DNA of 50,820 nt from Promethearchaeota archaeon (GTDB lineage Archaea; Asgardarchaeota; Lokiarchaeia; Sigyniarchaeales; SOKP01), in the NCBI GenBank assembly GCA_016839745.1, contig JAEOTS010000001.1, positions 1 to 50,820 on the forward strand. Direction: 5' to 3'. Below the pieces are notes generated by a model that was not told the DNA's origin, ran no database searches, and was given only the letters and a program-made list of their open reading frames with translations. This document shows, piece after piece, positions 1 through 40,128 of the stretch. The first letter of the stretch is position 1. The number at the start of each line of letters is the position of its first letter. Both the position numbers and the translations under genes were made by a program.

Positions 1-2
1 AA

Positions 3-638
3 AGCTAAAATCTCTATAACAATTAAAGATAGCAATCCTCCTACTAAATTACTAAAAAGTCCTAAAATAATTGTAATTACCCCTAATGAGAACCATTTTA
101 TTCTATTTTTAGTTTCTCCCTCTATTTTTCTATTTATTACTATATATCTTAAAGCAGCATATATGGCTAGAAATATCCGAATAGCATTTACAAAAATTAA
201 CAACCCGGGAAGAGTATGAGTATTGACTATACCAAGGGCGTAATCACCCATGTCTAGATAGGGAGGAAATATAAAATAACCAATACTCATGGCGAAGAAT
301 ATGATTAGCATAGTTCCTAGATACTTCATGCTCATGGCGATCTTGGTATGTTTTTCTAACACAAACAGGGTCATTGTGAGGGAAATTGAGTTAAAATTGA
401 AAAAGATATGGGCTGTCACCATTAGTGGAATAATTATATCCTTATTATTTAAAATTAAATGGTAAATAGCATAGATTGTAAATCCTAAGGACGAGGATAT
501 AAAGTATAAGGCAAACCATCTATTCAACAAGTCACTTTTGTTTAAAGAAAGAACCCGTAATCCAATAATTAGTGCTATAACGGCTGTGATTATTGTCGTG
601 ATTATTTTTAGTATATTTAGAGGATCCAAATTAGACAA
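3..638 (-). CDS. Polytopic membrane protein (HisKA_7TM-like N-terminal sensor type), runs off the window's left edge
   Basis: Manual translation from TTG at 638 (alternative 629): LSNLDPLNILKIITTIITAVIALIIGLRVLSLNKSDLLNRWFALYF...; open to the edge with at least 6 hydrophobic segments; absent from the ORF track because its stop lies outside the window. Confidence 0.7.
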   Translation of the reverse strand, partial: MSNLDPLNILKIITTIITAVIALIIGLRVLSLNKSDLLNRWFALYFISSSLGFTIYAIYHLILNNKDIIIPLMVTAHIFFNFNSISLTMTLFVLEKHTKIAMSMKYLGTMLIIFFAMSIGYFIFPPYLDMGDYALGIVNTHTLPGLLIFVNAIRIFLAIYAALRYIVINRKIEGETKNRIKWFSLGVITIILGLFSNLVGGLLSLIVIEILA

Positions 639-18460: not shown

Positions 18461-19498
18461 CTACTTTAATGCATTGTAAAGAATTTCTGCTATAGTATAG
18501 AACGCTTGCTCAACGTTTTCACCGGTTAAGGCGGATGTTTCTATGTATCCGAGGTTAAGGTACCTTGCAATATCAGAGCCTTTTTCTGAGATACTATCGG
18601 AATCATGGGTTAAATCTTTCTTATTTCCAATAACAAAACCAGTTAAAGCCGGTCTATCTTTTAATTGATTTTGGATATCGTAATACCAATTTGAAACGCT
18701 TTCTAACGAGTTTGGCTTTGACAAATCAAATATAAGGAACAAACCGTCAGATCCTAAATAGAATTGTTGTCTCATAGTTTGAAATTTCTGCTGTCCTGCA
18801 ATATCCCATAGAACTAATTGTATATAAGAATCTTTAACTTGAAATATCTTATCCGAAACGTGAACTCCAAGAGTTGGAATATAATGCCTTCGAAACGCGT
18901 TATTGGTAAATCTTAGTATTAAAGAGGATTTACCAACAGAAGGATCACCACAAATAACTATTTTAAATTTGTAGTTAATTAAATTAGCTTCTTTTATTTT
19001 TTGATCAGGAAAAGCTTTAGCATCTTCCTCGGCAATTTCGTTATTTTTAAATTCGTTTAAAAATTGATCAAGAGTAAGTGAAAGATCGTTCAAGATATCT
19101 ATATAACTTTCTCTTGGAGCTTTTGATTTTTGCAAATTTGCAATTTTCTCAGCTACTTCTTCAAACGGAGTATCAAAATAATTTAAATATTTATAAAAAA
19201 TAACATCGTCCGATTCATTAAACAATAAAGTAATTGCCCCTTGCCCAATTCCTCCCCGCCTCGATTCATCATCCCATTTTATATATTTTATTAAACCCTT
19301 TAGATTTAAGGAAGTAAATGGAAGAATTACTAACGATTCTGGGATAAGACCACTTTCTCCTGATAGAACTGTAATTGTTTTAACACTAATATGAAGTCTA
19401 CTGGATTGAGGTATATCTCCTATCCATACAAATGGATTCGGCCCCACCTCATCGTCCAATTCAGTATATAATATTCCTTTTATTATTTTTGCTTCCAT
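18461..19498 (-). CDS. Longin (uDENN-type) fused to a Rab-like small GTPase
   Basis: N-terminal ELDDEVGPNP...DESRRGG; G1 GDPSVGKSS, YIPTLGV, WDIAGQ, GNKKD and ETSALTG; no C-terminal Cys. Confidence 0.85.
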   Translation of the reverse strand: MEAKIIKGILYTELDDEVGPNPFVWIGDIPQSSRLHISVKTITVLSGESGLIPESLVILPFTSLNLKGLIKYIKWDDESRRGGIGQGAITLLFNESDDVIFYKYLNYFDTPFEEVAEKIANLQKSKAPRESYIDILNDLSLTLDQFLNEFKNNEIAEEDAKAFPDQKIKEANLINYKFKIVICGDPSVGKSSLILRFTNNAFRRHYIPTLGVHVSDKIFQVKDSYIQLVLWDIAGQQKFQTMRQQFYLGSDGLFLIFDLSKPNSLESVSNWYYDIQNQLKDRPALTGFVIGNKKDLTHDSDSISEKGSDIARYLNLGYIETSALTGENVEQAFYTIAEILYNALK

Positions 19499-28529: not shown

Positions 28530-29432
28530 ATGTTGAATTTTGAAAAAGAACAAAAAGTAGTAGAAATTGGACCTACTCGTATAGGAGGTCAACCGGGAGA
28601 AAATCCCGTTGTTATGATTGCTACCGTTTTCTATACTAATCACGCTGCTTTATTAGACGAAAAAACGGGTGATTTCGATAAAAAACTCGTAGAGCAGGAA
28701 TTAAACGAATATTCAGAGATTATCGAAGAAACTGGAATGCAGGGGATAATTGATATAGTTGGAGCTTATCCGGAAGCTTTATTGAAAGAATGTGAATTTG
28801 TAGCTGATATTGTCGATTATCCATTTTTAGTTGATGGTCTGAACGATAATTCGCGAATTCCGGCAATGGAAGGCTTAAAAGAGGTGGGACTTTCGGATAG
28901 AGCCATCTTAAACAGTTTAGACGAAGCTACATCTGAAGAAAGTCTTACTAAAATGAAAGAAATAGGTGTAAAATCCGCTGTTTTATTAACTTTCGGAAAT
29001 AGATACATATTTCCTCACCAAAAGATAGAATTTCTAAAGAATGTATTGATCCCGAAAGCACAAAAAGCTAATATTGAAAATATTATTGTGGACACAGCAG
29101 TGTTAGATTTACCTTCAATTGGAATTAATGTTGAAACCACGAGATTAGTAAAATCTGAATTAGGATTACCTACTGGGTTTGCTCCCGCTAACGCGATTTA
29201 TGGATGGGATTTTGTTAAAAAATATGGCAGTAAATCTAGATGTGGTGGAATTACTTCATTAATGGCTTATTGTATTAATGCTGGAAGCGATTTTGTATTA
29301 TTTGGACCTATAAAATTTGCTAAATGTGTTATTCCTGCCATGGCTCTCATATCAGGAATAAATTCTTATTATCGTAAACGAATTTTGAGGAAGAAAATTT
29401 CGGATCGAACTCCATTGAAGCACATTTTTTAA
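28530..29432 (+). CDS. Tetrahydromethanopterin S-methyltransferase subunit H (MtrH) family protein
   Basis: FEKEQKV.EIG...IGGQPGENP...T.FY, ILNS, IVDTAV and DFVLFGPI; no other mtr genes nearby. Confidence 0.85.
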   Translation: MLNFEKEQKVVEIGPTRIGGQPGENPVVMIATVFYTNHAALLDEKTGDFDKKLVEQELNEYSEIIEETGMQGIIDIVGAYPEALLKECEFVADIVDYPFLVDGLNDNSRIPAMEGLKEVGLSDRAILNSLDEATSEESLTKMKEIGVKSAVLLTFGNRYIFPHQKIEFLKNVLIPKAQKANIENIIVDTAVLDLPSIGINVETTRLVKSELGLPTGFAPANAIYGWDFVKKYGSKSRCGGITSLMAYCINAGSDFVLFGPIKFAKCVIPAMALISGINSYYRKRILRKKISDRTPLKHIF

Positions 29433-30940
29433 GAAATATACCTGATTAAGAGATCTTGGGTACGATTTAGGAATTCTTGCAGATTTTGATTAATTTGTTC
29501 TTTTTTGTTTTCTTCATCTAATAGAAAAAGAACATACATATCGTAATTTAACACGCGTATTTTCTTAAACAAAATAACTGAGTCTGAAACTTTAAATGTT
29601 GCTTCATCTTTCTCTGTGGCTTTGAAATTTGAAAATATTTTAAATAGCATAGTAAATTGTGGAGCCACTACCTCAAATACATTCAATAAATCCTCAGACT
29701 TTTGCATCTCAGTGATTTGTAGTGCTTTAGGCGTAAAAGATTCAGCTAATACTAATCCATCGCTACTAAGGAGGAGAATTAAAGAAGCGCCTGTTGCTGA
29801 AGAAAATTCGCGAAGATTATGTTCGACTAAATTCCTATTTGGGCTGAGTTTAGCTATTCCTGAAGAAAAGGCTCTTAAAATAGAGAAAATTTGAAAAAGA
29901 CTCGTTATATAAATTTCGGGAGGTTTATCCGGAGATAGTTTAGCTAGCTTACTTGTTACTGATTTTATATGGCTTTTAATTTCTTTAGATTGAATAATAT
30001 CAGAATCTCCTTTCGATAAAACATAGATAATTGGTGTTTTCTGTTCTAATTGCGCCAACGCCTTTTTCATATTATTAAGATATTCTATGCTTTCTTCAAA
30101 GCGATCTTTATCTCTGATATCAATAAAATAGAATAATAAATCTGCTTCGAACAAGTAAATTTGAGCTTTACTAAGGTACCTTTCGTGGTACTGCTTTTGA
30201 CCCCCTAAATCCCACAAGAAAATAGTTGCTCCCAGCGCTTCTATTGAACTCACATCTGCACCTCTGGTTGGGCTTAGTCCGATCAACTTTGAGAATTTTC
30301 TGTCAATTGAAAGCAAAAAGCTCGTTTTTCCACTATTGTCCAAACCAGCGAATAAAATTTTCATTTTTCTCTGGGAAGATATGGGAGTGGAAGGAGTGTG
30401 TTCAATAGTAATAATCTTTCGTAGAAGCCTTTTAAAGTCTGATTCTACCTTCTCTTGAGGTTGAAATTCAGCAGTTATTTTATTATCAAATTTAGAAAAA
30501 AAATCTATTACGATGTTTTTAAGTCTATTAATATTATTGTATAGAAAACTCCTTTTTTTCTCGTCTATTAAAATGCAGAAAGCACTTGCTGTTGGCATTT
30601 CAGTAGACTTTGTATCGATAAAGTGAAAGAACGTAAGAGATGTTAGTTGAAGATCTGGAAAGGGAATAATTCCAAAGTATTGGTAATTTTTCAATATATT
30701 AATTTCTTTATTATATACAGCTCCATCCCCTATTAAGAGAGAAATATTTTTGATGGCTATCTGGATGTATTCCCTCAAAGAGATCGTAAGTATATTTTTA
30801 GCCCTATCCTCTTTTTTTTTATTTTCTAATTCTTCTGTCTCTAATGGTTTAGGAAACATATAAATTGGCTGAGGACCTAGCTTATCGAAAGCGCAAAAGA
30901 CCAATCCTTTGATGATTGAAGATTCAATTAATTTGTCCAT
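29429..30940 (-). CDS. Longin + Arf/Rag-like GTPase + roadblock fusion
   Basis: AFDKLGPQP N-terminus; GLDNSGKTS, PTRG, WDLGGQ, SKGD and TSLF; C-terminal ILLLSSDGLVLA roadblock-like start. Confidence 0.85.
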   Translation of the reverse strand: MDKLIESSIIKGLVFCAFDKLGPQPIYMFPKPLETEELENKKKEDRAKNILTISLREYIQIAIKNISLLIGDGAVYNKEINILKNYQYFGIIPFPDLQLTSLTFFHFIDTKSTEMPTASAFCILIDEKKRSFLYNNINRLKNIVIDFFSKFDNKITAEFQPQEKVESDFKRLLRKIITIEHTPSTPISSQRKMKILFAGLDNSGKTSFLLSIDRKFSKLIGLSPTRGADVSSIEALGATIFLWDLGGQKQYHERYLSKAQIYLFEADLLFYFIDIRDKDRFEESIEYLNNMKKALAQLEQKTPIIYVLSKGDSDIIQSKEIKSHIKSVTSKLAKLSPDKPPEIYITSLFQIFSILRAFSSGIAKLSPNRNLVEHNLREFSSATGASLILLLSSDGLVLAESFTPKALQITEMQKSEDLLNVFEVVAPQFTMLFKIFSNFKATEKDEATFKVSDSVILFKKIRVLNYDMYVLFLLDEENKKEQINQNLQEFLNRTQDLLIRYIS

Positions 30941-33665: not shown

Positions 33666-34634
33666 TTGGCAATTCAATATTTAACTAAAGAAAAGAAGGA
33701 TAAGAAGAAAGTTACCTCAGCTTCAAAGCTACTCTTTACTGGCTTAGACAACGCTGGCAAAACGACAATAATCTACGGAATCCAGCGTGAATTCTCGAAA
33801 ATAGCTTTCCTTAAGCCAACTCGTGGAGCTCAAAGGCGAATATTTGAGTTCATGGGACGAGAAATCGCAGAATGGGATTTAGGAGGGCAAATTTCTTACC
33901 GAATTTCTTATTTGAAAAACCCTGGAAAATATTTCGATGACACGGAAATAGCCGTTTATGTAATAGATGTTCAGAATAAAATAAGGTTACCTGAAGCAAT
34001 TAGCTATCTTAAAGATGTTGTAGAACAATTCAGAAAACTCGAAATCGCCCCGCCTATTTATATATTTCTCCATAAATATGATCCCGCATTAAAACGAAAC
34101 GCTTTAAACGAAATGAAAAATCTCGAAGTAGAAATAAAAGAAAAAATAAAAAAAAATGTGGAATATAAACAAATCTTTTATTATAACACAAGCATCTACG
34201 ACCTTCCTTCAATCATAAAAGCTATGTCAGAAATACTATTAAGTTTATATTCAAAATCAGAATTAATAGAAAAAACGATTTTCGAGTTTGGTAAAAAAAC
34301 ATATTCAGATGGGATTGTTTTACTTGATGACAATTCTTTAATCATAGGAAGTTATTATAAGGATGATGAAACAAAGAATTTGCTTTCTGCTAGCACTCCC
34401 TATTTTCTAACCCTTAATGATAGCTTTGTTTTTACCGAAGTTCAGCCCAGCCGTAAAGAAGAGGAAAATCATATGGTTGTTCAAAGATTCGGCAGAAATT
34501 TCATATTTAAGCAACTGTCTTTAAAAGAAGGTATTAATCCATATTATCTTCTCATGCTCAAGCAAGACACTCACATCAATAAAGAAGATATAGATTGTTT
34601 TTCTAACTTATTGAAAGAGATACTTTACAGCTAA
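33666..34634 (+). CDS. Rag/Gtr-like small GTPase with C-terminal roadblock domain
   Basis: GLDNAGKTT, PTRG, WDLGGQ, Rag-type G4 HKYD and G5 TSIYD; IVLLDDNSLIIG; AAGGTGA SD before the TTG. Confidence 0.88.
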   Translation: MAIQYLTKEKKDKKKVTSASKLLFTGLDNAGKTTIIYGIQREFSKIAFLKPTRGAQRRIFEFMGREIAEWDLGGQISYRISYLKNPGKYFDDTEIAVYVIDVQNKIRLPEAISYLKDVVEQFRKLEIAPPIYIFLHKYDPALKRNALNEMKNLEVEIKEKIKKNVEYKQIFYYNTSIYDLPSIIKAMSEILLSLYSKSELIEKTIFEFGKKTYSDGIVLLDDNSLIIGSYYKDDETKNLLSASTPYFLTLNDSFVFTEVQPSRKEEENHMVVQRFGRNFIFKQLSLKEGINPYYLLMLKQDTHINKEDIDCFSNLLKEILYS

Positions 34635-34760: not shown

Positions 34761-35744
34761 ATGATTATTTGTTCCAACTGTGGGACTACAAACAACGAAA
34801 CAAGCGGGCGTATTTGTAGAAAATGTGGAGCGTTACTTCCAATTTCTAATAAACCTCCAAGAATAAAGATTTCTCCGAAAAAAGCAGAAAAACCACATAT
34901 TAAGGAACAGAGAGCTCCACCTCAAAAAAAAGAAGCTAAGAAGAAAACTGTTGCTAAGCCAGAAATCTTAGATCTTCACGAAATTCCTCAACCTGAAAAT
35001 GAAAGCGAGGAAGATTTTTTAGAGGATGACATAGAAAGCGAGTTGGATGAAGCAAATGATCATGGTGAAATTTTACAAGAAATTAAACCACAACCTTTCA
35101 GAGGTTCAATTATAGCAGATAAAGGCGTTTATGGACATCCTCAGCAAACAAAAATATCAGCAGATTCAAAATCTGGAAAATCTCAAAGTGCTCTCATTTC
35201 TTCCCCCAATATCGAATCAACTCTTCTAAAACAGAAACAATTAGAAGAAGATATGACGAAGGTACTTTCTTTTCTCTCAAAAAAGATTACAGTAAAACCT
35301 CTGAAAACGCTTAAAAAAGACGAGAAAATTAAAGAGGAGCCAGAAAAGGTCATTCCTCCTTCAAGTATGAGCGAAATTTTAAAAGATCTTTTGAAATTGG
35401 ATTTACACATTGAAGCCTCTGCGATCATAAAGAACGATGGTACCATACTTGCTTCGGCAATTAGTTCGAGGATATCTGATTCTCTGTTTGCCACAATTGG
35501 CCAGAATTTATCCATGATTGGTAATGATATTATTAAAGGATTAAGTGCTGGAACTTTGTTGAACATTTCCATTAGGGGTTCTAATGGAGTTTTAGATCTT
35601 GCGCCTATTGGGTCCAAAGACACTAAGGGAGGTGATATGATTTTGATAATCCTTTCACACCCTCGAGTGAAGAGTGGAATCATACATTTCGCCGTATCTA
35701 TTGTAAGTAAACAAGTAAAACAGTACCTAGGATTATCAAAATAG
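34761..35744 (+). CDS. Zinc ribbon + disordered linker + roadblock/LAMTOR-like domain
   Basis: CSNCG...CRKCG; IEASAIIKNDGTILASA...ISIRGSNG. Confidence 0.8.
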   Translation: MIICSNCGTTNNETSGRICRKCGALLPISNKPPRIKISPKKAEKPHIKEQRAPPQKKEAKKKTVAKPEILDLHEIPQPENESEEDFLEDDIESELDEANDHGEILQEIKPQPFRGSIIADKGVYGHPQQTKISADSKSGKSQSALISSPNIESTLLKQKQLEEDMTKVLSFLSKKITVKPLKTLKKDEKIKEEPEKVIPPSSMSEILKDLLKLDLHIEASAIIKNDGTILASAISSRISDSLFATIGQNLSMIGNDIIKGLSAGTLLNISIRGSNGVLDLAPIGSKDTKGGDMILIILSHPRVKSGIIHFAVSIVSKQVKQYLGLSK

Positions 35745-35761: not shown

Positions 35762-36559
35762 TTAGAGTAATTGTTTTTGAGCAATTATTTTTGAGATTTT
35801 TACTGTTTTAAAATATTGTAAATTAAACTGTAGTTCATGCAAAAAAGAATTTAAATTATGTATTCCCACAAGAGGAACAGAATTTTCATTAATCTTAATC
35901 CAATTAGGCTCTAATGTTACCATAATTGGAATTAGAGTAAACGGTAATCTTTTCCGAACGTTACAACTCATTCCTAATAGTCTCTGAATTAAATCCGAAA
36001 TTGTCTCAGGATTTTTTTTTAAAGCAACGACTCTTTGGTATTGTAAATTCGCAGCTTTATTCATAGCACCATAAGAATCTTTCCTTTTCCATTGTTTAGC
36101 GTCAATTATGAGTATATAACTTTGATAAATACCTATAACATCAATTTCGTACCGCTTTTGAGATGTTTCGTATTTCAGATTCGATCTATCAGAAAACCTA
36201 AAATTCTTAATTGTTCTAAAATTGTTTTGAGATAAAATCTCTTGAATTAAAGCTTCAAATCCGTCATAATTTAATAATATAGACAAATGATTAACATCTA
36301 ACTCTAAAAATTGAACACACCGAGTAATAAAGATAATTTTATTTATCACAATGTAATTAGTATAATTTCCTTTCTGAATAGAAATAAAATCAAACCTTTC
36401 TAAAAACTCGCGGAGTTTTAAATCACTAAAATTCTTGAAAAATTCAATTTCTGAAATTTCAAACCATAATTGGATTACCTCAGAATTTCCCTCCCTTAGA
36501 AGATTATAAATTTCTAAGAAAAATTGTTTTAGCGATGGAGTTGAAAATAAATCAGACAT
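35762..36559 (-). CDS. PD-(D/E)XK endonuclease-fold protein (Mrr/NERD-like)
   Basis: FEALIQEIL, EIDVIG and IIDAKQW. Confidence 0.75.
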   Translation of the reverse strand: MSDLFSTPSLKQFFLEIYNLLREGNSEVIQLWFEISEIEFFKNFSDLKLREFLERFDFISIQKGNYTNYIVINKIIFITRCVQFLELDVNHLSILLNYDGFEALIQEILSQNNFRTIKNFRFSDRSNLKYETSQKRYEIDVIGIYQSYILIIDAKQWKRKDSYGAMNKAANLQYQRVVALKKNPETISDLIQRLLGMSCNVRKRLPFTLIPIMVTLEPNWIKINENSVPLVGIHNLNSFLHELQFNLQYFKTVKISKIIAQKQLL

Positions 36560-37434: not shown

Positions 37435-38847
37435 ATGTCAAAAACAAAGAACAATATAATCAAGTCAATCGTTTTAAGTTTGTTTGATGACGATGGACCA
37501 ACGCCAAAAATATATTGGCCAGAAATGATGGATGAATCTTCGAGGCTATTGATTGCTATGAAAACTATTTCCCTATTGATGGGCGATACGGTATATCAAA
37601 ATGGCACTTCCACTGAAGATGTAAATTATTTTGGAATTTTGCCTTTTCCAGATTTAAAATTAAACGGTTTAACTTACTTTTTCTTAATATTGGATCCAAC
37701 AGCTCGTGGGAATGCTAAAGCAGCGACTATAACTGTTTTGATTGATGAAGACGATCGTGTTTTTTTCTACGAAAACATGAAATACCTAAGAATTATAATA
37801 GATAGTGCAGCTTCAAAGGTTCAAACGGCGAAAACTCTTGACGAAAATCAAGTTATAATGGACGAATTAAAAGGAGAATTGTTCGAATTTACTAGCGAAA
37901 TAAAAGACCCCTTTTCATTAAAGCGTCAAATTAAGATTCTTATGACCGGTTTAGATCGCGCGGGAAAAACTAGTTTTCTTCATGCCGTTAAAAAGAGATA
38001 CTCTAAAATTATTAAAACGCTTCCAACGAAAGGAGTAGCGAGAAGTGAAGAGAAAATTTTTGATGAACAAAATTCAACCATATCAGTATGGGATCTTGGA
38101 GGTCAAAAAACTTATCGAGAAAAATTTCTTGAACAACGAAAGGTATACTTATACAACGTAGATTTACTCTTTTATTTTATAGATGTTCAAGACTCTTCAC
38201 GAATTAACGAATCTGTCGATTTATTCAGTAAAGTAATAGATTCACTTATAGAATTAGAAGAATTTCCTCCAATTGTTGTATGTCTAAATAAATGCGATCC
38301 AGACATAAAGAAATCAGGAGATATTAGAGCTAATATTAACGCTATTATTGAAAAAATTAATGAAGTCTCTAAGCGGTTTTTCATAAAAATTTTTGAAACC
38401 TCTATCTTCGATGGATTTTCGTTAATATCTGCTTATTCCTACGGATTATCGCAATTATCTCCTAATAGAGAATTGTTCGAGAATCAATTGAAGCATTTTG
38501 CTAAGAAAATCAACTCAGATGCAATACTTTTACTTAACGAAAATGGAATAATATTATCGAATTTCTCTAGAATCGGCATTTCTGAAAAGGTTTTTGAAAT
38601 CTCTGCTCCACATTTTCAAACTCTATACAAAACATTTAAGGAATTTAAATTGCTCAAGCAAGATTTCCTAATTTCTTCAGGAATAACTGACGAATCAAAA
38701 AAAATAATATTTAAAAGGATTACAGTTGAAAAATACAACCTATATTTATTGATGTTTATGGAAAAAGACTTAAATCTAGATAAGATTGAAAAATTTTTAC
38801 CTAAATTTTCAAAAAATCTTAACGATTTAATTCAAACCTATATCTAA
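37435..38847 (+). CDS. Longin + Arf/Rag-like GTPase + roadblock fusion
   Basis: SLFDDDGPTP and DPTARG; GLDRAGKTS, PTKG, WDLGGQ, NKCD and TSIFD; AILLLNENGIILS; clear paralog of 29429-30940. Confidence 0.88.
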   Translation: MSKTKNNIIKSIVLSLFDDDGPTPKIYWPEMMDESSRLLIAMKTISLLMGDTVYQNGTSTEDVNYFGILPFPDLKLNGLTYFFLILDPTARGNAKAATITVLIDEDDRVFFYENMKYLRIIIDSAASKVQTAKTLDENQVIMDELKGELFEFTSEIKDPFSLKRQIKILMTGLDRAGKTSFLHAVKKRYSKIIKTLPTKGVARSEEKIFDEQNSTISVWDLGGQKTYREKFLEQRKVYLYNVDLLFYFIDVQDSSRINESVDLFSKVIDSLIELEEFPPIVVCLNKCDPDIKKSGDIRANINAIIEKINEVSKRFFIKIFETSIFDGFSLISAYSYGLSQLSPNRELFENQLKHFAKKINSDAILLLNENGIILSNFSRIGISEKVFEISAPHFQTLYKTFKEFKLLKQDFLISSGITDESKKIIFKRITVEKYNLYLLMFMEKDLNLDKIEKFLPKFSKNLNDLIQTYI

Positions 38848-38862
38848 TAACTTAAAAAAATA

Positions 38863-40128
38863 CTAATAATTTGAGTAGCTAGTCTCTTTAAATCTCTTTT
38901 TCCTACTCCGTCTGATTAAGATTGTTATTCCAATGGCAAGAACTGCAAGTATCACACCAATTATTATGAGAACAATAATTTCTGGAGCAATTAGATTAAC
39001 ACCTATTACACTCACTTTGAAGCTATATTCATAATCAAATACTGATGTAACATATGAGACAATACACGGATGAGGAAATTCGCTCGTATCATTTAGTTGA
39101 GGAATAGAAAACCAAGCTCCAACATTAAAATTGAAACGCATATAATCTATGTGATTAAAATAGTTGGTTTGTTCATCCCAAGTAGGATCACATGCAATCC
39201 ATCCTATGTTTGGAACATAGTATTCAACCCACGCATGTCCTAAAATATTAGATGGCTTACTTGAACTTGAATAAAAATTCCACTCTTGACCGATATAGGG
39301 TTTCGTAGAAGCAACGTTAGAAATAACAAAACCAGTAACTTTGCGTGCTGGTATTCCTTGACATCGTAAGAGTGTAATCATTAAACTAGAATATTCGCTA
39401 CAATCGCCCATTTGATTTTCGTAAGCCCATTTAGCTCCTTTCTCTTGATCGGGAAGACTACCATTGTATTCTAAGTGATCAACAACCCAATCACAAATTT
39501 TTTGAGCTTTAACCACAGGATTATCGCTGGGATTAACAATACTATAAGAGGTAGCATTTATGTTAAAATCGTTTTTTTCGTAGTAAGTTTCGGAGTTATT
39601 ACAATATAACGCAAAAATCTCATCAGAAGTATCATAAACACCTATTTCTGATGAATCAATATTGTTAAAGAAGACTTCATTTAATTTAACCCGGTATTTT
39701 TGATTTAAAGTAATTGTTTCACTTGGTAAAAGATTAGAAGCATTAAAAACATCGTAGGTATTGTTAAATCTATCTCTATATATGAATGGAGTAGTATCAC
39801 TGCCAGTTATACTACTATACTGTAATTCACTTTCTTGATATGGTCCCGAATATTGAGTTAAAGAGGAATTTGGATGACGATCGTTTAACCTTGAAAACTT
39901 AAACCAGTAATCAGGGTTAATCCCCGCTGAATGCGTTAATGTAAAGTTTATTTCCACACTGTATGTAACGCTTTGAGGAATTTCATAATTTGAAACCCCA
40001 ATACTAGATTTAATCGCTATTGCTGTAAATTTTAATTGATTTGGGGCTGCTATAACCATCGAAAACGGTAAGACAATAAGAGGAAATAATATTACGATTA
40101 GAATAAATGTAAATTTTAATGATCTCAT
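38863..40128 (-). CDS. Membrane-anchored secreted transglutaminase-like protein
   Basis: GDCSEYS, HAWVEYY and WIACDPTW triad; signal peptide; C-terminal TM followed by RRSRKKR. Confidence 0.9.
   Translation of the reverse strand: MRSLKFTFILIVILFPLIVLPFSMVIAAPNQLKFTAIAIKSSIGVSNYEIPQSVTYSVEINFTLTHSAGINPDYWFKFSRLNDRHPNSSLTQYSGPYQESELQYSSITGSDTTPFIYRDRFNNTYDVFNASNLLPSETITLNQKYRVKLNEVFFNNIDSSEIGVYDTSDEIFALYCNNSETYYEKNDFNINATSYSIVNPSDNPVVKAQKICDWVVDHLEYNGSLPDQEKGAKWAYENQMGDCSEYSSLMITLLRCQGIPARKVTGFVISNVASTKPYIGQEWNFYSSSSKPSNILGHAWVEYYVPNIGWIACDPTWDEQTNYFNHIDYMRFNFNVGAWFSIPQLNDTSEFPHPCIVSYVTSVFDYEYSFKVSVIGVNLIAPEIIVLIIIGVILAVLAIGITILIRRSRKKRFKETSYSNY

Follow-up and report, generated by a model that had tools for sequence, protein, structure and literature searches.

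The longin–GTPase–roadblock gene of the window

The window analyzed in this work, a stretch of 50,820 nucleotides with a G+C content of 31% (positions 1 to 50,820 of contig JAEOTS010000001.1 from the Promethearchaeota archaeon assembly GCA_016839745.1), contains on its plus strand an open reading frame (ORF; 37435–38847) for a protein of 470 amino acids (aa), P0001, in which a longin domain, a Rag-like GTPase domain and a roadblock domain are joined in a single chain. From the domains, motifs, conservation and context of this gene, which we will refer to as gene A, we infer with about even confidence that it encodes a Rag-family GTPase provided with a longin of the FLCN/NPRL2/SMCR8 class, and that a pair of such longins would act as an arginine-finger GTPase-activating protein (GAP) on a Rag-like G domain. 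Gene A and its parts are as follows:

37435..38847, plus strand: gene A, longin–Rag-like GTPase–roadblock protein (ORF, Pfam, full-length AlphaFold2 model)
37435..37914, plus strand: predicted FLCN-type longin domain, residues 1–160 (AlphaFold2 model, VIA-align, Pfam Folliculin)
37477..37506, plus strand: beta1–beta2 hairpin with F17 and G21-P22, the GP motif (position, conservation, comparison with FLCN)
37693..37710, plus strand: loop D87-P-T-A-R91-G92 between beta4 and beta5, with R91 as candidate arginine finger (conservation, register with FLCN)
37924..38460, plus strand: Rag/Arf-like G domain, residues 164–342 (Pfam, motifs, structure alignment)
38467..38844, plus strand: C-terminal roadblock, residues 345–470 (secondary structure of the model, structure alignment)

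By script check, the hairpin motif SLFDDDGPTP corresponds to residues 15–24 of the gene A product (37477–37506), FFLILDPTARGNAK to residues 82–95 (37678–37719) and the codon of R91, CGT, to 37705–37707. The motifs of the G domain are GLDRAGKTS (G1 or P-loop, residues 172–180), WDLGGQ (G3, 219–224), NKCD (G4, 285–288) and TSIFD (G5, 322–326). All of the motifs that an earlier sequence-only reading of this DNA had quoted, the R91 codon included, were found where it had placed them.

The portion of P0001 that follows the longin is matched by the Pfam family Gtr1_RagA with 90.1 bits (cut-off 22; residues 167–374) and by the family Arf with 74 bits. In the full-length AlphaFold2 model (predicted local distance difference test score, pLDDT, 76; predicted template modelling score, pTM, 0.70), the elements of the roadblock follow the order alpha-beta-beta-alpha-beta-beta-beta-alpha. 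Residues 165–468 were aligned over 272 residues with LokiRagO (PDB entry 8yl2; Z 24.2), which is the best match of this part of the protein in sequence (E 5.7e-35) as well as in fold and which has no longin, and over 272–283 residues with RagC (Z 22.0), RagA (Z 20.8) and Gtr1/Gtr2 (Z about 20). The alignments with the RagA, RagC, Gtr1/2 and LokiRagO chains extend to residues 466–470 of gene A, and in the model residues 165–468 consist of a G domain of the Rag type and, behind it, a roadblock. The G4 motif of P0001 and its genus, NKCD or NKFD, differs from the Rag-type HKxD, which is present in 10 of the 12 A orthologues from other families (HKSE in the other two); the representative P0127 has SKVD.

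The close homologues of the gene A product are from Lokiarchaeota/Promethearchaeota metagenome bins, where their public names are "Arf-like," "SAR1 family," or "Rab family," and folliculin occurs in none of these names. One sequence that is 88% identical to the N-terminal domain of A (P0041) has been deposited as "Candidatus Nanopelagicaceae bacterium" (HUW90091.1); its source is probably a mis-binned Lokiarchaeial contig.

Structural class of the N-terminal domain

The AlphaFold2 model of residues 1–160, constructed from a 73-row alignment, has a pLDDT of 90.4. Its elements (beta9–18, beta21–28, alpha34–48, beta65–71, beta76–86, beta94–104, alpha105–131, and alpha135–155) follow the order beta-beta-alpha-beta-beta-beta-alpha-alpha, which is the topology of longin domains, with G21-P22 at the start of the second strand (21–28) and R91 in the loop between beta4 and beta5. 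Against solved longins in general, the model gave Z scores of 8–18.6. The top match by both Foldseek and VIA-align was the longin of a Lokiarchaeal Roadblock-Longin protein (8yqg; Z 18.6), and it was followed in VIA-align by Lst4 (Z 13.3), FLCN (Z 13.3/12.6), C9orf72 (Z 12.5), and NPRL2 (Z 11.7), whereas the longins of Ykt6, TRAPP, VAMP7 and Sec22b reached Z scores of only 8.9–9.3. The order of the matches in Foldseek agrees with that in VIA-align. The assignment of this domain to the FLCN/FNIP/C9orf72/NPRL2 structural class of longins is thus supported by the model.

Correspondence with the functional elements of FLCN

For comparison with FLCN, short fragments of this protein were confirmed in PDB chains. 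In the chain 6ulg_L, residues 1–23 contain F10 and G15-P16, and residues 154–179 contain D160-S-L-A-R164-G165 as well as S171-I172. The segment D87-P-T-A-R91-G92 to T98-I99 of P0001 can be placed without gaps against D160-S-L-A-R164-G165 to S171-I172 of FLCN, and the range aligned by VIA-align (residues 9..156 of the model on 2..268 of FLCN) sets F17 against F10, with the GP motif one residue closer. The equivalence of R91 and R164 is in this case one of sequence register and aligned ranges. On this footing, it is well supported that F17, G21-P22, and D87-x-x-A-R91-G92 of gene A are the counterparts of F10, G15-P16, and D160-x-x-A-R164-G165 in FLCN, where F10 makes a key contact with RagC and R164 serves as the catalytic finger (PMC9473554).

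Profile searches also connect this group of proteins with folliculin. At E <= 0.1, 26 of 73 homologues match the Pfam family Folliculin, which is the sole non-GTPase Pfam family that was matched among them; its curated cut-off is passed by two homologues, viz. P0212 (28.7 bits) and P0228 (24.5 bits). In five of six independent matches the arginine falls at profile column ~59–61, while for the sixth (P0197) the range is 49–61. Among the PDB sequences, a profile for the longin alone (A3) retrieved only 8yqg and no FLCN, and a phmmer search with P0212 likewise retrieved only 8yqg. The matches in the ESM Atlas were Promethearchaeota clusters and one cluster in which 19% of the members carry the NPR2 Pfam family.

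Conservation of the hairpin and the arginine loop

A phmmer search with the N-terminal domain against 1.84 billion representatives identified 115 proteins, and 76 domain-covering N-terminal domains, taken from representatives of 50%-identity clusters, were used for residue counts. In these, G21 is present in 75/76, P22 in 72/76, R91 in 64/76 and G92 in 62/76, and D87 co-varies with R91. Among the orthologues of A, S15, F17, G21, P22, F82-F83-L84, D87, R91 and G92 are invariant in 24/24, down to an identity of 33%. Judged by this conservation, the longin motifs are not due to chance. The sequence-only reading had proposed that an N-terminal longin with a GP hairpin and an FLCN-like arginine loop precedes a full G domain and a roadblock. 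This description is borne out in each of its parts: the domain models as a longin whose nearest eukaryotic folds are FLCN, Lst4, C9orf72 and NPRL2, the parts behind it are of the Rag type by both Pfam and structure alignment, its two motifs agree with the FLCN sequence in the PDB chains, and R91 and the D-x-x-A-R-G loop are kept in the orthologues.

The arginine is also retained when the longin occurs in other architectures. It is found in all nine of the A proteins of the Rag type, in 27 of 29 fusions to Ras/Rab-type G domains, in all eight of the proteins that are extended N-terminally by a roadblock-like part, and in nine of the 11 with other C-terminal parts. The GP/Arg longin stands directly upstream of two classes of GTPases, viz. 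Rag-type and Ras/Rab-type. In both of these the G domain invariably comes next after the longin, its P-loop lying near residue 170–190, and in the models of gene A the linker from helix alpha3 to strand beta1 of the G domain consists of about 8 residues.

Some of the remaining proteins possess a GP/Arg longin that is followed by a C-terminal region other than a GTPase, namely an ORF of 386 aa on contig C47 of this genome (G000), P0150, which carries a TrmB winged helix, and P0209, P0228 and P0231. In six other proteins of about 280 aa (P0164, P0172, P0181, P0196, P0197, and P0235), a roadblock-like N-terminal domain is followed by an Arg-bearing GP longin, which is the layout of the 8yqg protein, whose loop has no arginine.

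Paralogues with and without the arginine

Seven ORFs with this longin domain were found in this genome. Two of those that lie in the window besides gene A are:

29429..30940, minus strand: gene B, longin–Rag–roadblock paralogue of 503 aa, in which GP is kept, the arginine motif is lost and G4 is the deviant SKGD
18461..19498, minus strand: GP/Arg longin (loop DDESRRGG) with a Ras/Rab-type G domain, 345 aa (BLASTP to A 2e-24, loops aligned; Pfam Ras 149.6 bits)

Gene B shares 34% identity and the same three-domain layout with gene A. In the B-type sequences the GP motif is present in 20/20 and D-x-x-A-R-G in 0/20; their G4 is [ST]KxD in 18/20, the glutamine of G3 has been replaced by K, S or T in 6/20, and a seventh sequence (P0146) lacks the whole G3 motif. 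A longin that has the GP motif and no arginine is the same pattern as that seen in C9orf72 (PMC12290439 for C9orf72). Within the Rab-type branch, GP and Arg are kept in this genome by the fusion at 18461–19498 and by an ORF of 352 aa on contig C151, and both are absent from C23:14230–15261 (plus strand) and from an ORF of 348 aa on contig C74. These fusions amount to a second split into forms with and without the arginine.

A different kind of divergence was observed in three A-like proteins whose G domain has decayed. At the A-like locus of genome G030 (L012:3797–5158), GP and D-E-L-A-R-G are kept, while the switch I threonine and DxxGQ have been lost (WDYKPK). P0130, which looks to be of the same lineage, has decayed G3 and switch I motifs and retains GP and ARG. 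In P0132, which is still recognised as Gtr1_RagA, GP and D-x-x-A-R-G are likewise kept, whereas G3, switch I and the Ser/Thr of the P-loop are destroyed. These three proteins look like pseudo-GTPases with a live candidate arginine finger.

Genomic context and phylogenetic distribution

Upstream of gene A there are two further genes on the same strand:

33666..34634, plus strand: gene C, plain Rag-like GTPase–roadblock protein of 322 aa, a conserved neighbor of A (Pfam Gtr1_RagA 87 bits; 8yl2 E 2e-86)
34761..35744, plus strand: gene D, downstream of C, with a zinc ribbon, a long linker and a roadblock-like domain (weak Pfam Zn_ribbon_3 and Robl_LC7)

Gene C adjoins A in the genus g1, in family f2 (G036 and G038) and in G030. 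Its orthologue in G038 (L001:4932–5954), which lies beside the A orthologue, is identical to the chain of PDB entry 8yl2 ("LokiRagO"), a homotetrameric RagA-like GTPase. Orthologues of gene D follow C in the genus g1 and in G030, where the A-like gene is part of a compact C-D-A' operon; in G036 and G038, no gene D was found in the interval from C to A. The C-like frame of G030 (L012:1570–2532) is open for about 321 codons, and a protein that starts at its first ATG, GTG or TTG would be of 222 aa with the P-loop cut off, which points to a start codon of a non-canonical kind or to a fault in the assembly.

Two other genes recur at these positions. Between C and A, a NERD-like gene is encoded in the opposite orientation (35762–36559, minus strand, in the window; L001:4055–4918; L002:3410–4264), and its conservation extends over genus g1 and family f2 (29% identity, E 3e-19). 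A gene for a membrane protein with a transglutaminase core meets the 3' end of gene A in convergent orientation (38863–40128, minus strand), and the same arrangement is found in G030 (L012:5158–6417).

Gene A was present in 36 and gene B in 31 of 41 relatives, and in 15 of these genomes the two lie on one contig, 6–13 kb apart and in opposite orientation. Across 251 genomes sampled from about 30 families of the phylum, the A–B pair is limited to family f1 (54/55) and family f2 (4/5), and at least two matches were found in 52 of the 60 positive genomes. The orthologues of gene A occur throughout its order, including in single-contig genomes, and the fusion of longin, Rag and roadblock was found in this one order only (families f1–f4) among the families sampled. 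On account of this restriction, the layout of gene A looks like a lineage-specific fusion. The GP/Arg longin domain itself reaches beyond this order, as profile A3 detected it in 101/251 genomes and in about 9 of the 30 families.

The sequence-only reading had seen in the fusion an ancestor of the nutrient-sensing machinery of FLCN/GATOR1 and Rag. This part of it is unsupported, and such an ancestry of the eukaryotic machinery was rejected on the distribution just described.

The gene context also bears upon the GTPase that the longin might serve. The longin of A could be a GAP for free Arf-related or Ras/Rab-like GTPases, with its own G domain and roadblock acting in regulation or localisation. 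A longin of the same class, that of SMCR8, acts on ARF1 (PMC8213707), many small GTPases are encoded in this genome, and there are Rab-type G domains that carry this longin too. However, outside a general GTPase island nothing in the gene context was seen to connect A with Arf-like genes or with Rab-like genes that stand alone, its conserved neighbors C and B are Rag-like, and fusion usually marks a functional partner. We consider a target of this kind very unlikely. A Rosetta-stone inference that this class of longin works with Rag-like GTPases is reasonable, and a GAP function for the gene A longin makes a good hypothesis.

Possible mode of action

In the mechanism held to be most likely, provided that its longin is such a GAP, the gene A product would form dimers by way of its roadblock and its longin. 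Families f3 and f4 would have homodimers; in this genome, the Arg-less B and the plain Rag-like C may be further partners. Two longins would together embrace one Rag-like G domain, for which F17 and the G21-P22 hairpin would form the contact surface, and R91 would reach into the nucleotide pocket as the arginine finger that speeds the hydrolysis of GTP.

As to whether R91 acts in trans or strictly within its own molecule, the sequences make action in trans somewhat more likely. The retention of the arginine by A-like proteins with a decayed G domain argues that it is not kept solely for the protein's own G domain, with which it would otherwise be expected to decay, and its presence in these as well as in the stand-alone and roadblock-longin forms favors action on another G domain, which may be that of the partner protomer, of B or of C. 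Since the longin always comes right before the G domain and is joined to it by a short linker, an intramolecular mechanism is nevertheless possible, and in its strict form this would be an auto-GAP, in which the longin folds back and supplies R91 in cis as a built-in timer that needs no partner G domain. G-alpha proteins have an internal arginine, to which a timer of this kind can be likened. The similar spacing in the Rag-type and Rab-type fusions and the linker of about 8 residues are in accordance with it, and so is the pTM of the monomer, which suggests a defined domain arrangement. However, we regard a strict auto-GAP as unlikely, since A-like proteins in which G3 and switch I are destroyed still have GP and ARG, the arginine is kept where the longin stands alone or follows a roadblock (8/8 of the latter), and in the solved complexes of longin GAPs the GTPase sits on the longin dimer (PMC8213707, PMC9473554).

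A number of observations weigh against an arginine-finger GAP that is formed by the longins of gene A. With 16.1–17.5 bits, P0001 itself falls short of the cut-off for the Pfam family Folliculin (PF11704; 23.3), the longin fold occurs without the arginine in the solved Asgard relative 8yqg, D87 and R91 could be a structural pair, and the majority of eukaryotic longins serve as platforms for guanine nucleotide exchange factors (GEFs) and not as GAPs. Further, with B itself as the query, gene B was not found in five f3/f4 genomes that have A, which speaks against the A–B pair as the general mode; an obligate A–B heterodimer in this role was rejected for this reason. The occurrence of A without B in these two families indicates that the Arg-bearing form is the general one, and gene B looks like a later duplicate from which the arginine was lost.

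Several of these observations would also be expected if the longin were non-catalytic, a platform for dimerisation, GEFs or effectors in which D-x-x-A-R-G has been kept for structure or binding. Dimers of longin and roadblock domains are mainly GEF platforms (PMC10933270), the Arg-less fold of 8yqg is in keeping with such a role, the co-variation of D87 and R91 is compatible with a salt bridge, and B retains the whole domain without the arginine. Such a role is possible, but we are inclined to doubt it. It is at odds with the invariant counterparts of three functional elements of FLCN (F10, GP, and R164) and with the GP motif, which is reported to be specific for GAP-type longins and absent from those of the GEF type (PMC12290439); in addition, the nearest folds are the longins of GAP complexes and not those of TRAPP, SNARE or AP proteins.

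Relation to known systems and significance

Parts of this picture have already been published separately. The three-domain layout and the Rag/Arf-like class of the G domain are shared by gene A with the L-G-R Rag-like GTPases of Ca. Prometheoarchaeum syntrophicum MK-D1 (Tran 2024, PMC10933270). In that paper the layout is catalogued from AlphaFold2 models, and an FLCN-type assignment, the GP/Arg motifs, a pair of forms with and without the arginine, and the C–A context do not appear. The GP/Arg motif has been described for Asgard longins of the "Folliculin/SMCR8 type" (Traffic 2025, PMC12290439), which resemble A in having GP where beta2 begins, together with a conserved arginine, and for which possible GAP activity has been proposed. 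So far as its text is accessible, that paper treats its 15 proteins as longin proteins and leaves open whether their partners are Arf-related or Rag GTPases, whereas the longin of A is fused to a Rag-like GTPase. In the literature searched, no statement was found that identifies the fused longin as FLCN type or that concerns the Arg-plus/Arg-minus pair or the C–A context, and no paper was found on 8yl2, on LokiRagM (8zla, 9m28) or on 8yqg. The last of these, the Roadblock-Longin protein, has GP without the loop arginine and an N-terminal roadblock in place of the GTPase.

With the human complexes FLCN-FNIP2 (acting on RagC), NPRL2-NPRL3 (RagA), and C9orf72-SMCR8 (ARF1), gene A has in common the fold class of the longin (Z 11.7–13.3), and with FLCN in particular the F, GP and D-x-x-A-R-G elements. 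The human longin GAPs combine one Arg-bearing with one Arg-less longin paralogue, as do A and B, and their substrate class is of the Rag architecture, as is A. The differences are also clear. FLCN and SMCR8 are longin-DENN proteins, while A has neither a DENN nor any other C-terminal domain of a GAP subunit, its residues 165–468 being the Rag G domain and the roadblock; it is hence orthologous to neither FLCN nor SMCR8, with which it shares the longin module alone. In A, a GAP-type longin and a GTPase are part of one chain, there is no context of Ragulator, mTORC1 or a lysosome, and the Arg-less partner B was not found in two of the families (f3/f4).

A farther-reaching interpretation is that the Arg-bearing protein of f3/f4 represents a pre-eukaryotic, self-regulating homodimer of GAP longin and Rag, and that the duplication into A and B mirrors, or shares ancestry with, the splits into FLCN/FNIP, NPRL2/NPRL3 and RagA/RagC. 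If this were true, the partnership of Rag with longin GAPs would be older than eukaryotes; we hold it to be distinctly unlikely, and the gene A fusion is no demonstration that the eukaryotic machinery descended from it. What the fusion does provide is an answer in Rosetta-stone style to the question of the longin's partner, as fusion to a Rag-like GTPase here and to Ras/Rab-like GTPases in paralogues suggests candidates for it. Genes A, B, C (crystallised as LokiRagO) and D constitute a small, soluble, wholly prokaryotic system, and with it one can test whether the arginine-finger GAP chemistry of longins on Rag-type GTPases predates eukaryotes.

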